From IMG/VR virus record IMGVR_UViG_2526164628_000009: 4,491 nt of DNA; one strand, 5' to 3'. How positions within the stretch are numbered: position 1 is the stretch's first letter; each line of letters begins with the position of its first letter. This DNA comes from a virus (Duplodnaviria > Heunggongvirae > Uroviricota > Caudoviricetes). The notes under the pieces were generated by a model that was not told the DNA's origin, searched no databases, and saw only the letters and a program-made list of their open reading frames with translations. Shown here piece after piece: positions 1 through 4,491 of this stretch. A program made the position numbers and the translations under genes.

Positions 1-51
1 GAAACTCCTTTCAGTCAGAGGCGACGCACTGCGCCGCCTGCATATTACTTA

Positions 52-564
52 TCAGCCAAGCCCAAGCGCGGAACGGATGCGATCGGGCACAATGTCCTTG
101 CCGTCCTTCCGGTAAATGAAGTTCAGCAGGTCAATCTCCCACAACGGGCGATCGTTAACACTCAGCTTGTAGTAGGTGTTTTTAATGGCGTAAGTGTGTG
201 ATGTGGCTTCGCCCTGTTTGGCTTCCCCCATATCAATTTCCGTCACACGTCCGCGCATCTCGATTTCATACAGATCGCTTTCTGCATCGGTGTAGTATTC
301 ACCCGCAAAACGCAGCAGCGTGCCGTCAATCGTGCCGCCATATTTAAGGAACAGCGCACGAACAGCTCCCCCCATAACAAAACTCGCATCAAGCGCGGAG
401 TCGTCCAGACCGAGATCAATACTTACCGCACCCATCATGCCACCACCACGATAGCTGTCGGTTTTGCGCGTCAGTTTAGGCAGGGTGACGGACGTCACCT
501 TACCCACTTCGTTTTCACCATCCACAAACAGACGTAAAAAGCGAAGATGTTTTGGTACAGCCAT
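52..564 (-). CDS. FII: P2-like phage major tail tube protein (gpFII family)
   Basis: 170-aa ORF. The translation (MAVPKHLRFL...LPKLTRKTDSYRGGGMMGAVSIDLGLDD...) resembles P2 FII as I remember it (conserved LPKLxRKTxxYRxGGMxGAVxIDLGLDD block). The ATG at 564..562 overlaps the FI stop in a TGATG arrangement, and the minus-strand sequence just upstream reads GGGAGG, a good RBS. Sits immediately downstream of the sheath gene, as in P2. Confidence 0.9.
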   Translation of the reverse strand: MAVPKHLRFLRLFVDGENEVGKVTSVTLPKLTRKTDSYRGGGMMGAVSIDLGLDDSALDASFVMGGAVRALFLKYGGTIDGTLLRFAGEYYTDAESDLYEIEMRGRVTEIDMGEAKQGEATSHTYAIKNTYYKLSVNDRPLWEIDLLNFIYRKDGKDIVPDRIRSALGLG

Positions 565-1748
565 CAGACACCTCCCAGCACCGCAAATGCGGGACCAAAG
601 AATTCATCAGTAAACGACTGGTAAAGCTCCATGTCTTCCAGCGGGGGAACAGGCGTATATTTGTAGCGAATACGCACACGCCCCTGACGTAAATTCGTGG
701 TGCCGTTATCCACCACGTCATACCAGCACGACGCCCCAATCAGTTTCCCGGCAGTAACCAGTGAATCCAGTTTTGCCCTGATGGCACTGATAACATCTTT
801 CACGTTCGCAGGCGTCACTGGACTGTCGATGGTTTCAAACTGCGCTTCCGCAATTGAATCAGCCAGCACCTGTGCGGTTCGGGTATACACCTCAAAGATG
901 TAGGCGTTCGTTTCCGGTGTGCGGTTGCCCCAGAAGCGGAACCCGTTGCGACGAATAATGGTCGTGATTTCTTTGTTGTTGAGGCTGTTGGCATCGCTGT
1001 CTTCGGCCTGCAACGACCAGAACACATGCCTGGACATCCCCAGCACATTTTTAACCGGAACGTTGGACAGCGATTTGTGCCAGCCCTGTTCATGGTCAAT
1101 GTACGCACGGAGGCCGCACGCATAGGCAGGCGCGGGGAACGTTTCGTTTTTGCCACTTTTGGGGTTGTAGGCGATGAAGTCCGGCCATAAGAGCATTACC
1201 TCACGTTCGTTGAATTTCTGGCGGTAGGTAATCGCCTCAGCCATCGTGTTACAGCCGTGACATGAGGCATACACAAACGCGCGCAGTTTACCTGCAATCA
1301 CGCACAGGGATTTTGTTACAGCCTCCGTGTCCAGCTCCGGCGCGGCCAGAATACGCGGACGGTATCCGATGCTTTCATCCTGCTCTGCAACAAGCAGCGC
1401 ATACATCCCCGTATAGCTGCCGTCAGATTCAGAACCACCGATAACCAGTTGATCCTGCGTCTTTCCGTCTTCTTCTTTGTGTTCAGCCACGCGAACGACG
1501 ATCACCTTTGTGCTCACCTGGTCTGCGATGGCCTTAAGCGCACGATAAAGCGTCCCCGTTGTCCCGCATTTTCCCAGCACGTCATTGACGCGGGTCAGCA
1601 GTGTGGGCTTGTTCAGCGGGAACAGCTTCGCGTCCGCATCATCCGCCGTTGCCACGATACCGATAACGCTGGAATCAACATCGTTAATCGCTGTTACCAG
1701 GTCGGTATTTTCCGTAACACGGGCACCATGAAAACGAGTTTCACTCAT
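564..1748 (-). CDS. FI: P2-like phage contractile tail sheath protein (gpFI family)
   Basis: 394-aa ORF, close to the 396 aa I recall for P2 FI. Shared blocks include FPLNKP near the N-terminus, LRAFxYxSxxGCxT...YRQxFxxRExMxxWPDF, EQGWHK(S/T)LSNV, RRxGFRFWGNRT, YTRTAQVxAD and the C-terminal YxYTPVPPLE. An RBS-like AAGGGG lies upstream on the minus strand. Its stop overlaps the FII start, indicating translational coupling. Confidence 0.95.
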   Translation of the reverse strand: MSETRFHGARVTENTDLVTAINDVDSSVIGIVATADDADAKLFPLNKPTLLTRVNDVLGKCGTTGTLYRALKAIADQVSTKVIVVRVAEHKEEDGKTQDQLVIGGSESDGSYTGMYALLVAEQDESIGYRPRILAAPELDTEAVTKSLCVIAGKLRAFVYASCHGCNTMAEAITYRQKFNEREVMLLWPDFIAYNPKSGKNETFPAPAYACGLRAYIDHEQGWHKSLSNVPVKNVLGMSRHVFWSLQAEDSDANSLNNKEITTIIRRNGFRFWGNRTPETNAYIFEVYTRTAQVLADSIAEAQFETIDSPVTPANVKDVISAIRAKLDSLVTAGKLIGASCWYDVVDNGTTNLRQGRVRIRYKYTPVPPLEDMELYQSFTDEFFGPAFAVLGGV

Positions 1749-1905
1749 AGCTTTAGCCCCTTGTATCCGTTAAATGATTCGGCAACAATCATCACCCACC
1801 ACGCGCGTAATCTCACCCCTGTGCCGTTCTCCCGATCCGGCGACAACAAAAAGCAGTAACCCCCTCCGCACGCACATGCGACCATGCCGCACAGGGAGGG
1901 AACAG
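1749..1905. promoter_or_regulatory. Divergent intergenic region between the FI and D start codons; expected site of late promoter(s)
   Basis: 157-bp non-coding gap between two head-to-head tail genes, each with its own Shine-Dalgarno sequence (AAGGGG for FI, GGGAGGG for D). I found no exact TGT-N12-ACA Ogr box by eye, so promoter positions are not assigned. Confidence 0.4.
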
Positions 1906-3015
1906 ATGACCGATACCACCATGCAATTGCTCAGTCAGGGCACAGACCCCGTGAAAATGCCGGATTTTGATATTCTCGCGGAGGGTAAAACGCTGTCAGG
2001 CGTGGCAGAGCGCCTGATGAGCCTGTCACTGACCGACAACCGGGGATTTGACGCGGACCAGCTCACCATCACGCTGGATGATGCGGATGGTCAGTTGCAG
2101 CTACCGCCACGGGGCGCGCGCCTGACGGTTCTCATTGGCTGGAAAGGAGAACCGCTGACAGAAAAAGGCACTTACATTGTTGATGAAATCGCTCACGAAG
2201 GACCGCCGGACAGGCTGACTGTTTCAGCCAGAAGCGCAGATTTTCGGGATGAATTTAACGTTAAACGTGAGGTGTCCTGGCATGATGTGACCGTTGAGCG
2301 TGTGGTATCCGCCATCGCTCATCGGTATGGTCTGAAACCGCAAATCAGCGAAATGCTGATGGATATCGAAATCGACCACGCCGACCAGACCGAAGAAAGC
2401 GACATGTCCTTCCTTACGCGCATGGCGGAAATGCTGGGCGCAATCACCACGGTAAAAAGCGGTAATCTGTTATTCATTATGCCAGGCGGTGGCGTGAACG
2501 CACAGGGCCAGCCGTTGCCATCGTTCGCCATCACGCGCAGCAGTGGCGATCGCCATCAGTTCCGCATTGCTGACCGCGAAGCGTATACGGGGGTACGCGC
2601 TTACTGGCTTGATCTTAATTACGGGAAAAAGAAAAAAGTCAGCGTGAAACACCGCAAACCGCCAAAACCCAAAAAGGAGAAAAGCAGCAGCCGCGAAGGT
2701 GATTATATGGAAGGCGCGGAAGGCAATGTGTTTGTGTTACGCAAGACTTATCAGAACGAGCAGGCAGCAAGACGCGCAGCGGCGGCAAAGTGGCAGCAGC
2801 TACAACGCGGAGCCGCATCATTCTCCATCACGCTGGCATGTGGTCGTGCAGAACTCTACCCCGAAATGCATGGCACGGTAACAGGATTTAAAAGCGAGAT
2901 TGATAATCAGGACTGGATTATTGCAAAAGCCGAGCACACCATCGATAACAGCGGCTTTACCACGCAGCTTGAGCTTGAGGCAAAAATCCCGGAATGGATA
3001 GCAGAAACAGAGTGA
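1906..3015 (+). CDS. D: P2-like phage tail protein D (gpD, late control gene D family)
   Basis: The ORF track gives 1774..3015, but the upstream extension has no RBS. The ATG at 1906 is preceded by GGGAGGG at about -7 to -13. The 369-aa product has the gpD-like C-terminal half (AYTGVRAYWLD, a Lys-rich linker, NVFVLRKTYQNEQAARRAAAAKWQQLQRGAASFSITLA) and lies directly upstream of ogr as in P2. Confidence 0.88.
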   Translation: MTDTTMQLLSQGTDPVKMPDFDILAEGKTLSGVAERLMSLSLTDNRGFDADQLTITLDDADGQLQLPPRGARLTVLIGWKGEPLTEKGTYIVDEIAHEGPPDRLTVSARSADFRDEFNVKREVSWHDVTVERVVSAIAHRYGLKPQISEMLMDIEIDHADQTEESDMSFLTRMAEMLGAITTVKSGNLLFIMPGGGVNAQGQPLPSFAITRSSGDRHQFRIADREAYTGVRAYWLDLNYGKKKKVSVKHRKPPKPKKEKSSSREGDYMEGAEGNVFVLRKTYQNEQAARRAAAAKWQQLQRGAASFSITLACGRAELYPEMHGTVTGFKSEIDNQDWIIAKAEHTIDNSGFTTQLELEAKIPEWIAETE

Positions 3016-3057
3016 GCAACTTAGAATAGCAGCAGCACCACGTTAAGGGAGGTCGCT

Positions 3058-3318
3058 ATGTTCCGTTGTCCGCTTTGTGGCGCATCTGCCCGTATCCGCA
3101 CCAGTCGTCCGGAAAATGATTCAAACACCGTGCGGCAAAAGTATTACCAGTGTAACAACCTGGAATGCGGCGTATGCTTCTCAACACTGGAAGCTTTCCA
3201 TAAATTCACATCAAAACACACCTCCGGCGTTCACTCTTCAGAAGGTATCCCGTGGCATGAGCTGCCAGCTTCACACAGGGGAAACAATCAGATGAGTTTG
3301 CCTTTACCTCAGAATTAA
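3058..3318 (+). CDS. ogr: Ogr/Delta-family zinc-finger late transcription activator
   Basis: 86-aa ORF starting MFRCPLCG...RTSR...YYQCNNLECGVCF, matching the CPxC...C-x4-C zinc-finger layout and N-terminal MFHCPLC...ARTSR signature of P2 Ogr and 186 B as I remember them. Strong RBS (AAGGGAGG) upstream. It is about 14 residues longer than the 72-aa P2 Ogr I recall. Confidence 0.85.
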   Translation: MFRCPLCGASARIRTSRPENDSNTVRQKYYQCNNLECGVCFSTLEAFHKFTSKHTSGVHSSEGIPWHELPASHRGNNQMSLPLPQN

Positions 3319-3509
3319 CAGGCAGAATTGCCGGAGTAACAAAAAAGCGATAGATTACGCGCGGGTGCCTTTCGGCTGATGGTCGGAGGGAATACCCGAA
3401 GGCCAGATGTGGAAAGGCCCCGGAAAACATTTCTGTTTAACCGAGGCCCTAACATATCTACCTTAAGCAAGTGATAGGTTAGCGCCTCTCCAACAAAGGA
3501 GCAAGCGCT

Positions 3510-3650
3510 ATGTCGCAAAAATCGCTTACGGCCATCACGTTCTGCGTGACGGTAATCCTCATCATCTGGATGCTACACGGTTCGCTGTGTGAAATACGGA
3601 TGAGCTTCTGGGGAGCGGAGTTTGCGGCGTTCTTACAGTGTAAGCAGTAA
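3510..3650 (+). CDS. Hok/Gef-family type I toxin (small membrane-active host-killing peptide)
   Basis: Absent from the ORF track, probably below its length cutoff. ATG at 3510 is preceded by AAGGAG (3496..3501). Hand translation gives 46 aa, MSQKSLTAITFCVTVILIIWMLHGSLCEIRMSFWGAEFAAFLQCKQ, with a single N-terminal transmembrane helix followed by the SLCEIR motif and the E-x-AAF motif characteristic of Hok/Gef/RelF peptides. TAA stop at 3648..3650. Confidence 0.8.
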   Translation: MSQKSLTAITFCVTVILIIWMLHGSLCEIRMSFWGAEFAAFLQCKQ

Positions 3651-3659
3651 GGAAACCGC

Positions 3660-3681
3660 GACGGGGGAGCAATCCCCCGTC
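3660..3681 (+). other. Stable stem-loop in the hok-like 3' UTR (9-bp GC-rich stem, GCAA tetraloop)
   Basis: GACGGGGGA (3660..3668), loop GCAA, then TCCCCCGTC (3673..3681), a perfect inverted repeat. It is not followed by a U-tract, so it is probably an mRNA stability or folding element rather than a terminator. Confidence 0.6.
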
Positions 3682-3738
3682 AATCGGTTGCTAAGGTTGG
3701 CTGAAGTGGCACCCTATCTCACAGACATGAACAACAAA

Positions 3739-3770
3739 CCCGCAGCGTAAGAACTGCGGGTTTTCTTTTT
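3739..3770. terminator. Rho-independent terminator, plausibly bidirectional, between the convergent hok-like gene and the minus-strand cargo gene
   Basis: CCCGCAG (3739..3745), 8-nt loop, CTGCGGG (3754..3760), then TTTTCTTTTT (3761..3770) on the plus strand. On the minus strand the same stem is followed by TTTGTTGTT, so it could terminate transcripts from both directions. Confidence 0.75.
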
Positions 3771-3838
3771 GGAACTATCACTAGCTAGTGTACCGTTAAC
3801 GGCACATAATGCTCGCACAACAAACCTGTTAAAAGAGA

Positions 3839-4120
3839 TTACTCAGCATTCTCCTGCTTCCATTGCCGGATCATTTCATCGGTAACATCACCCTCATAAC
3901 ATACCACGTCATACCCTCCATTACGGCTATATGCACTGCGTCCACCACATCTACTACCATTCCTTGCATGATTATAAGGACACGCACAATTGCCTGGATA
4001 AGATTCAATGGATTCTTTAATTATTTCTTTTTTGATCTGAGCATCAGACTTTCCTGTTGCTGCATATCCGCTAAAAGATACTAAACAAAGGCAGATTGCC
4101 ATTAATAAACCACATCGCAT
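3839..4120 (-). CDS. Small exported cysteine-rich protein of unknown function (predicted signal peptide, about 70-aa mature part)
   Basis: The 131-aa ORF-track entry starts at a TTG with no RBS. The more plausible start is the ATG at 4120..4118, giving 93 aa: MRCGLLMAICLCLVSFSGYA|ATGKSD..., with a basic n-region, hydrophobic core and an AxA-like cleavage site. The mature part has four Cys (GNCACPY...SRCGG...VVCY). The gene is clearly more AT-rich than the flanking phage genes. Start choice and function are uncertain. Confidence 0.5.
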   Translation of the reverse strand: MRCGLLMAICLCLVSFSGYAATGKSDAQIKKEIIKESIESYPGNCACPYNHARNGSRCGGRSAYSRNGGYDVVCYEGDVTDEMIRQWKQENAE

Positions 4121-4264
4121 ACCGATACACTCTATTACTAACCAATCATAGCCCACATCATAAAATCGAGATGAGGAGTACAATACCTTTAACAAGAAGG
4201 TGTCATAACGATAATATGTCGTGCAATTCATCAAAAAAAAGATCTATATCAAAGAGATAGAACT

Positions 4265-4491
4265 TGGATTTGCCCCTATATTTCCAGACACCTGTTATCA
4301 CTTAACCCATTACTGGCCTGCTGCCGCAGATATTCCCGTGGCGAGCGATAACCCAGTGCACTATGCGGATGCCATTCGTTATAATGCTCGAACGCCTCTG
4401 CAAGGTTCTTTGCTGCCGTTAACCCGTCTGGTTTAGGCATGATACTGATGTAGTCACGCTTTATCGTTTTCACGAAGCTCTCTGCTATGCC
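4265..4491 (-). mobile_element. IS2 (IS3 family) insertion sequence, terminal 227 bp, truncated by the window edge
   Basis: From 4265 the plus strand reads TGGATTTGCCCCTATATTTCCAGACACCTGTTATCACTTAACCC, the reverse complement of the IS2 terminus (...GGGTTAAGTGATAACAG.TGTCTGGAAATATAGGGGCAAATCCA) as I remember it. The adjacent minus-strand frame encodes the IS2 OrfB C-terminus. Confidence 0.85.
4276..4491 (-). CDS. insD: IS2 transposase OrfB (InsD) C-terminal fragment; the 5' part lies beyond the window
   Basis: The minus-strand frame is open to the window edge: [71 protein letters not shown]. The [15 protein letters not shown] block is the typical IS3-family integrase-core C-terminus. The ORF-track M at 4473 is a GTG inside this frame, not a true start. 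Confidence 0.8.

Follow-up and report, generated by a model that had tools for sequence, protein, structure and literature searches.

Head-to-head arrangement of the tail genes FI and D in P88-like prophages and a putative bidirectional late promoter between them

Results

Genes and Features of the Window

The window analyzed here is a 4,491-nucleotide stretch of DNA from the IMG/VR virus record IMGVR_UViG_2526164628_000009. On the minus strand it encodes the 170-residue tail tube protein FII (positions 52 to 564; PF04985, E = 6e-46) and the 394-residue tail sheath protein FI (564 to 1748; PF04984, PF22671, and PF17482), which are 98% identical to gp48 and gp49 of phage P88, respectively. The FI stop and the FII start overlap by 1 nt. 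The plus strand carries D, encoding a 369-residue tail/baseplate hub protein (1906 to 3015; PF05954, E = 2e-17) with 98% identity to the D protein of P88 and 50% identity to that of P2, and ogr, encoding an 86-residue late-gene activator (3058 to 3318; PF04606, E = 5e-14). Ogr has the motif CX2CX24CX4C, and all four cysteines are common to P2 Ogr. Matches to PF04984/PF17482, PF04985, PF05954, and PF04606 exceed the Pfam gathering scores, and the FII, FI, D, and ogr reading frames are all intact. The homologues of FI, FII, D, and Ogr place the window in the contractile-tail late module of the P2-like phages (Peduoviridae). The D start at 1906 agrees with the P88 annotation and is preceded by a ribosome-binding site (GGGAGGG, 1894 to 1900, plus strand). 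Reading frames and Pfam matches agree with the arrangement described in a first-pass annotation of this DNA, in which FI-FII on the minus strand and D-ogr on the plus strand are separated by 157 bp between the FI start at 1748 and the D start at 1906.

At the left edge of the window, the same annotation had taken a minus-strand AAAGGAG for the ribosome-binding site of a further gene, possibly E. The site is real but lies at 5 to 11, one nucleotide away from the 4 to 10 that had been given. The ATG of the E homologue is 7 nt beyond it, to the left of window position 1. In P88 and in Escherichia coli AR_0013, which is 99.7% identical to the window, the E-like coding sequence begins at what would be window position -3, and the gene maps place E', T, and U after it in the same orientation. 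E does extend to the left of the window, as had been suspected. At the other edge an IS2 end occupies 4265 to 4491, near the prophage end. A search of Rfam at gathering thresholds gave no match across the whole window, the hok region included.

Identity with P88-like Phages and Comparison with the P2 Map

Positions 1 to 3770 align with P88 as a single collinear piece at 97.4% nucleotide identity. The phages phiSM and PhiR44_2 are similarly close to the window, each being collinear in one piece. By its high nucleotide identity to the type phage P88 and its synteny with it, this 4.5-kb part belongs to the genus Xuanwuvirus (Peduoviridae), and the window represents the right-hand end of a P88-like E. 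coli prophage. P88 is mitomycin-inducible and forms plaques (PMC5285337), and the Citrobacter phage phiSM is temperate and fully functional (PMC6456863).

In P88 the minus strand carries U, T, E', E, FII, and FI, and the plus strand carries D. In the P2 record, by contrast, FI, FII, E, E', T, U, D, and ogr all run in one direction, as the first-pass annotation had said. Set against P2, precisely the FI-to-U block is inverted, with D-ogr and the remainder keeping their orientation; the proposal that this block had been inverted relative to D-ogr was therefore well founded. The window lacks the canonical single-operon order FI FII E E' T U D of P2 and 186. Neither the P88 paper (PMC5285337) nor the SEN4/5 papers discuss the FI-U inversion or the gene order, which is visible in the deposited annotations.

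Occurrence of the FI/D Junction

Close relatives were retrieved from IMG/VR by their D protein; all were 98-100% identical, which makes them suitable for counting junctions and not for footprinting. FII and FI on the minus strand with D on the plus strand were found in 80/80 of these, and the FI-D gap was 157 bp in 75 loci and 156 bp in the other 5. A 451-bp probe spanning the junction, required to match over at least 80% of its length, detected the junction in 1356 of 5426 complete E. coli genomes (about one quarter). Because the same junction recurs independently in complete genomes, in IMG/VR contigs, and in phage genome records, the head-to-head FI/D arrangement is neither chance nor an assembly error. 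We found nothing in favor of an artefactual junction, which the first-pass annotation had entertained and which is scarcely conceivable given its recurrence in independent assemblies.

Sister Genera and a Single Inversion

The FI-to-U block is also inverted in Senquatrovirus, Reginaelenavirus, and Reipivirus, and the order in SEN5, Kp4871-3, and Kp4847-1 is that of P88. Neighbor-joining trees of D and of FI both recover Xuanwuvirus and these three sister genera as monophyletic. The P2 order is kept in the other eight genera sampled (P2 and Kapiecee-, Wadgaon-, Fira-, Citex-, Baylor-, Aptres-, and Vhmlvirus). From the shared order and the single clade in both trees it follows that the FI/D head-to-head arrangement goes back to one old inversion, which became fixed in a known lineage. 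This order is standard and functional in P2-related E. coli prophages that are common and have been sequenced before, and as such is ordinary. Gene order does not define the Peduoviridae as classified, in which four recognized genera have the inverted order.

These results bear on the view, raised in the first-pass annotation, that the window represents an unusual lineage or a rearranged remnant. That this genome alone has been rearranged recently, or carries a P2-like remnant in decay, might be suspected from the IS2 end near the prophage end, from the insertion sequences or disrupted D genes of some related E. coli prophages, and from the fact that just 4.5 kb of this prophage copy is visible. 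However, FII, FI, D, and ogr are intact, the junction recurs with its 157-bp spacing unchanged in viable phages and more than 1300 genomes, and it is kept across genera whose D proteins are only 62-72% identical. We regard a remnant as very improbable. Indeed, the annotation itself allowed that the order would be ordinary if closely related functional P2-like phages had it, and it is common to the 97%-identical functional phages P88 and phiSM and to three further Peduoviridae genera.

A DNA invertase gene directly adjoins U in P88 and its E. coli relatives, which raises the question of whether FI-to-U is a reversible segment flipped by a neighboring enzyme of the Gin/Cin type, the window showing one of two states. 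The features of a Gin/Cin/Hin-type invertible segment, namely inverted crossover sites and both orientations, were not found: the block in P88 has no flanking inverted repeats, only short matches at chance level, and a single orientation was seen in 80/80 relatives. Furthermore, the tail-region loci retrieved from SEN5, Kp4871-3, and Kp4847-1 contain no invertase homologue, yet have the same order, and the P88 invertase adjoins a duplicated, oppositely oriented pair of tail-fibre/assembly genes, its usual target. We regard a reversible switch, too, as very improbable, and a single ancestral inversion remains our reading of the gene order.

A Candidate Ogr-type Dyad in the FI-D Gap

The 157-bp region between FI and D (1749 to 1905) is a putative bidirectional late promoter, as judged by sequence comparison. 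The P2 late-promoter consensus is TGT-N12-ACA, and in phage Smp131 PP' and PO' are described on one shared dyad (PMC3931495). A strict search of the FI-D gap for TGT-N12-ACA found none. The gap does contain a TCT-N12-ACA dyad at 1828 to 1845 (GTTCT-N12-ACAACAAAAAG), the only such element in it and a candidate site for an Ogr-type activator that would act on both promoters. On the left, TCT takes the place of the canonical TGT half-site, which stands at the same position in two sister genera. In all four genera the FI/D gap and the P/O gap each contain a single T(G/C)T-N12-ACA dyad, and the two gaps of any one genus have the same half-site variant: TCT in Xuanwu- and Reipivirus, and TGT in Reginaelena- and Senquatrovirus. 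P88's own P/O gap has the same TCT variant as the window. Within P88 intergenic DNA the extended motif T(G/C)T-N12-ACAAC is confined to the FI/D and P/O gaps. The loose pattern T(G/C)T-N12-ACAA is no rarer in P88 than in shuffled sequence (8 observed versus 7.1 expected); the case for the dyad therefore rests on its position and its conservation across genera.

Two other elements were considered and rejected. A pair of TGT-N20-ACA dyads (1761 to 1788 and 1820 to 1848) would provide one activator site per promoter, but the sister-genus alignment conserves only the T(G/C)T-N12-ACA element at 1828 to 1845; the unconserved 1761 to 1788 dyad would also straddle the predicted FI start and lie mostly within the predicted 5' leader. 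Alternating (CG)n sequence between the dyad and the -10 position looked conserved but is not claimed as an element, because GCGCGC turns up roughly once in every kb of these genomes.

Predicted Promoters on Either Side of the Dyad

Ogr-dependent late promoters of the P2 type have a -10 but no -35 element and need both Ogr and the RNA polymerase alpha subunit for transcription. In the P2 record a single activator site serves pP and pO, whose starts (3016 and 3127) are each 55.5 nt from the dyad center, and the -10 position of both falls in dyad columns 53-58. In the window these columns hold GATGAT on the FI side (1788 to 1793, minus strand) and GACCAT on the D side (1880 to 1885, plus strand), with predicted starts near 1781 and 1892, respectively. 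The corresponding hexamers in the sister genera are GAATAT, GATGAT, and AATGAT for FI and AATCAT, AACCAT, and GACGAT for D. A NANNNT hexamer is found at the P2-defined distance on 16/16 promoter sides of the clade against a background of 0.10, a figure that comes from related sequences and is not an independent-sample probability. A scan of 1749 to 1905 for σ70 consensus promoters gave no site. We infer the start sites, the Ogr dependence, and the sharing of one site in the FI-D gap from the sequence. The geometry suggests that the 157-bp gap resembles the P/O control region of P2 and that a single Ogr site may drive divergent FI and D promoters. The first-pass annotation had reasoned that D would need its own promoter; D does appear to need one, and the dyad and -10 geometry predicts that it has one.

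Between D and ogr there is a candidate ogr promoter with a -10-like TAGAAT at 3022 to 3027 (plus strand). It was not called by the consensus promoter scan. A -10-like hexamer (CATAAT or TATACT) is likewise found between D and ogr in the sister genera, and the P2 record has an annotated ogr promoter in the D-ogr gap.

The dyad might instead serve the FI promoter only, with D-ogr transcribed from an Ogr-independent promoter or just from the small promoter before ogr. The asymmetry of the half-site ACAACAAAAAG, the very short predicted D leader (∼14 nt), and the TAGAAT ahead of ogr are all consistent with this. However, D is an essential late tail gene for which late expression is required, no σ70 consensus promoter precedes it, and in three of the four genera the spacing of the -10-like hexamer, the ribosome-binding site, and the D start from the dyad does not vary despite diverged surroundings, which mirrors the P2 pP/pO geometry. 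The exception is SEN5, where the D start codon is 7-8 nt further out. A dyad serving FI only is thus possible but rather unlikely.

Discussion

We consider the explanation as a whole, a P88-like lineage order produced by ancestral inversion together with a putative Ogr-dyad promoter mechanism, to be very probably correct. In this reading, an ancestor of the lineage inverted a cassette comprising the F promoter and FI-FII-E-E'-T-U, which severed D from the end of the tail operon and brought FI and D to lie head to head. According to the putative mechanism, the symmetrical Ogr-binding dyad of the F promoter would thereby have been placed beside D. The gap may now act like the P2 P/O region, with the site at 1828 to 1845 some 55 bp upstream of two divergent late promoters that lack a -35 element. 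The leftward promoter would transcribe FI to U and the rightward one D, continuing into ogr, which seems to retain its own small promoter besides. Re-use of the symmetrical dyad by the inversion, giving a second bidirectional late control region that fires FI to U and a new D-ogr transcript with the P2 P/O geometry, is the part of which we are less sure, although on balance we favor it.

The FI/D head-to-head order in E. coli, Salmonella, and Klebsiella is no sign of rearrangement or prophage decay and is mainly of value for annotation. It marks one clade of the Peduoviridae, which some quarter of complete E. coli genomes contain. What the analysis adds, modestly, is the putative bidirectional Ogr-type promoter in the FI-D gap. 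If real, it would explain how D and late read-through into ogr stayed under late control after the operon was split, and it would provide a second natural test case, besides pP/pO, of one Ogr site activating two divergent promoters. It would also show cleanly, in a natural case, how a symmetrical activator site lets an inversion split an operon while regulation is kept.

The closest known systems are P88 and phiSM, which match the window in gene content, order, orientation, and the 157-bp FI-D gap, followed by a hok/gef gene. The window differs from them in running beyond the phage end into host DNA and the IS2 copy, and the P88 RefSeq record leaves ogr unannotated, though the reading frame is present. 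The Salmonella and Klebsiella prophages of Senquatrovirus (SEN4/SEN5), Reginaelenavirus, and Reipivirus have the same block inversion head to head with D-ogr, whereas the proteins are only 28-73% identical, no invertase was found beside U, and two of the genera have the canonical TGT dyad. With the F operon of P2 and 186 the window shares a homologous gene set, ogr after D, and attP/int beyond, at 45% (FI), 43% (FII), 46% (U), 50% (D), and 36% (Ogr) identity to the P2 proteins. There, in contrast, D is the last gene of the operon; here the FI-to-U inversion has removed it from that position, and D has no overlap with U and has its own ribosome-binding site and upstream control region. The putative FI/D promoter region resembles P2 pP/pO in its divergent late genes around one TGT-N12-ACA-type dyad with -10-like hexamers at the same distance on both sides and no -35 element. 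The differences are that the pair here is FI/D rather than P/O and that the left half-site is TCT.

Gene Content and Phage Identity

Gene calls from an ORF list and a Pfam scan placed the tail tube gene FII (52-564, minus strand; PF04985) and the tail sheath gene FI (564-1748, minus strand; PF04984, PF22671, and PF17482) head to head with the tail hub gene D (1906-3015, plus strand; PF05954) and the late-gene activator gene ogr (3058-3318, plus strand; PF04606). The FI-D gap is 157 bp (1749-1905), as given by the first-pass annotation. A minus-strand AAAGGAG ribosome-binding site, previously located at 4-10, is present but lies one base away at 5-11, and the E-like gene that it was taken to announce leftward of FII does exist: in the Escherichia coli AR_0013 prophage its start lies 7 nt past this site, immediately left of window position 1. 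The FI stop and FII start share one base (TGATG, minus strand, 562-566); the P2 pair is 12 nt apart. The Ogr protein of the window has 86 residues and the arrangement CX2CX24CX4C, and P2 Ogr has 72 residues and CX2CX22CX4C. The longer C-terminal tail, also present in sister genera, ends with a conserved PASH(Y/R)G..Q(L/M)SL motif.

A megablast search of phage records matched window 1-3770 to Escherichia phage P88 in one collinear piece at 97.4% identity, followed at 94-97% by PhiR44_2, Citrobacter phage phiSM, Xuanwuvirus P884B11, and others. The window belongs to a phage genus already known, sequenced, and classified. In the P88 record (Peduoviridae, Xuanwuvirus), plus-strand H and G precede an invertible fiber segment and a DNA invertase; the minus-strand genes U, T, E', E, FII, and FI come next, ahead of D (plus strand) and hok. 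The AR_0013 prophage, 99.7% identical to the window, has the same order. Annotation of its D gene (locus L002, 22162-23015) begins only at the equivalent of window position 2215, beside a pseudogene fragment, and its portal gene has an internal stop, which indicates that this copy is decaying; D in the window, by contrast, is intact. The P88 RefSeq record (NC_026014) lacks an ogr annotation, although a 98% identical ORF exists at 34476-34733.

The point where phage genome matches stop falls within 3722-3772, an interval that surrounds a bidirectional terminator-like hairpin (3736-3763) and is probably the attR/prophage boundary. The AR_0013 prophage adjoins the leuZ-cysT-glyW tRNA cluster. At the prophage end, a hok/gef toxin gene (3510-3650, plus strand; PF01848) lies within a region (3342-3714) that is 84% identical to one in many Stx-converting phages and in which no Rfam family, such as Sok, reached the gathering score. 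Just beyond the phage end is an ORF without a Pfam family (3839-4234, minus strand; annotated as 3839-4120 in E. coli, where it is called "hypothetical protein") with a signal peptide-like N terminus and several cysteines. The end of an IS2 element (IS3 family) occupies 4265-4491 and encodes the transposase C terminus (4276-4473, minus strand; PF13683). E. coli matches without the element all end at 4264, and no complete E. coli genome of the collection contained the exact IS2 insertion in one uninterrupted match.

Inversion of the FI-to-U Block

In the P2 record, FI, FII, E, E', T, U, D, and ogr share the same strand. Comparison of the P88, AR_0013, and P2 records bore out the suggested inversion of an FI-to-U block: exactly that block is inverted and nothing else. 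The first-pass annotation had also considered a rearranged remnant or an assembly artifact. However, all 80 close relatives fetched from IMG/VR carry minus-strand FII and FI and plus-strand D, as well as plus-strand ogr wherever the contig extends far enough; their FI and D genes are separated by 157 bp in 75 loci and by 156 bp in 5. A 451-bp probe spanning the junction reached 80% coverage or more in 1356 of 5426 complete E. coli genomes, and 80% or more of the entire window was present in 1060 genomes. P88 was induced with mitomycin C and produces plaques, and its burst size has been measured (PMC5285337); the P88-related temperate phage phiSM is described as fully functional (PMC6456863). 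The order is therefore neither an artifact, a remnant, nor a peculiarity of one genome. That closely related functional P2-like phages share it is the very outcome that the first-pass annotation had named as refuting its finding.

A block that switches reversibly between orientations is unlikely, because no inverted repeats were found flanking it in P88, a single orientation occurs among the 80 IMG/VR relatives, and no invertase homologue was found among the tail-region loci fetched for the sister phages SEN5, Kp4871-3, and Kp4847-1.

A tblastn search with D returned 524 phage records, from which examples of high to low identity were chosen. In Salmonella phage SEN5 (Senquatrovirus; D 63% identical) and in Klebsiella phages Kp4871-3 (Reginaelenavirus; 70%) and Kp4847-1 (Reipivirus; 73%), minus-strand U, T, E, FII, and FI lie head to head with D and ogr. 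The order is collinear in the sampled P2, Kapieceevirus, Wadgaonvirus, Firavirus, Citexvirus (phiCTX), Baylorvirus, Aptresvirus, and Vhmlvirus. Because neighbor-joining trees of D and of FI each unite the four inverted-order genera in one clade, a single ancestral inversion is the simplest account.

A Candidate Activator Site Shared by FI and D

P2 late promoters are Ogr-dependent and carry a TGT-N12-ACA dyad (PMC3931495). In the P2 record one activator site (3057-3087) is annotated for both divergent promoters pP and pO, whose starts (3016 and 3127) are each 55.5 nt from the dyad center. Each of the four inverted-order genera has exactly one T(G/C)T-N12-ACA dyad per FI/D gap and one per P/O gap, with a half-site constant within the genus (TCT in Xuanwuvirus and Reipivirus, TGT in Reginaelenavirus and Senquatrovirus). 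The window dyad is GTTCT-CCCGATCCGGCG-ACAACAAAAAG (core 1828-1845) and that of the P88 P/O gap is GTTCT-GGCCGTTTTCTT-ACAACAAAAGC. By itself, the loose pattern is no less frequent in P88 than chance would give (8 observed, 7.1 expected), and the argument is instead one of position, the extension ACAACAAAA, and conservation across genera.

All promoter regions were aligned by their dyads. On either flank, columns 53-58 or 54-59 then hold a hexamer whose second base is A and whose sixth is T; this was so in 16 of 16 cases, which are related sequences and not independent samples (background frequency 0.10). These columns coincide with the -10 elements of P2 pP, pO, and pF. The predicted -10 hexamers of the window are GATGAT on the FI side (1793-1788, minus strand; predicted start ∼1781) and GACCAT on the D side (1880-1885, plus strand; predicted start ∼1892). 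The distance from dyad to D start codon is fixed (columns 78-81) in three genera despite diverged flanks, and the predicted D leader is short. A promoter scan detected no σ70 consensus promoter in 1749-1905, as expected for activator-dependent promoters lacking a -35 element. Most likely, the inversion moved the F promoter, together with its symmetrical activator site, up to D and would thereby have created a P/O-like bidirectional late control region between FI and D.

Small ORFs annotated within the FI-D gap, at 33155-33286 in P88 and at 8800-8952 of locus L084 in SEN5, are probably spurious and overlap the predicted promoter region. Most of the late promoters predicted for the clade have an alternating (CG)n run separating the dyad from the -10-like hexamer (window 1802-1807; L084 and the further fetched loci L086, L087, L088, L089, and L090); the longest such runs of the two fetched SEN5 segments fall there, although GCGCGC is common genome-wide.

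All four inverted-order genera have a -10-like hexamer between D and ogr (TAGAAT, 3022-3027, in the window), and the D-ogr gap of P2 contains the annotated ogr promoter, so ogr probably retains an Ogr-independent start, which would avoid a bootstrapping problem.

Relation to Known P2-like Phages

The gene order is already visible in public annotations and drew no comment in the P88 paper (PMC5285337) or the SEN4/5 paper. It would not surprise a P2 specialist, since gene-block rearrangements have been described among P2-like phages, Smp131 being an example (PMC3931495). The sole addition to what is known is the putative activator site common to FI and D.
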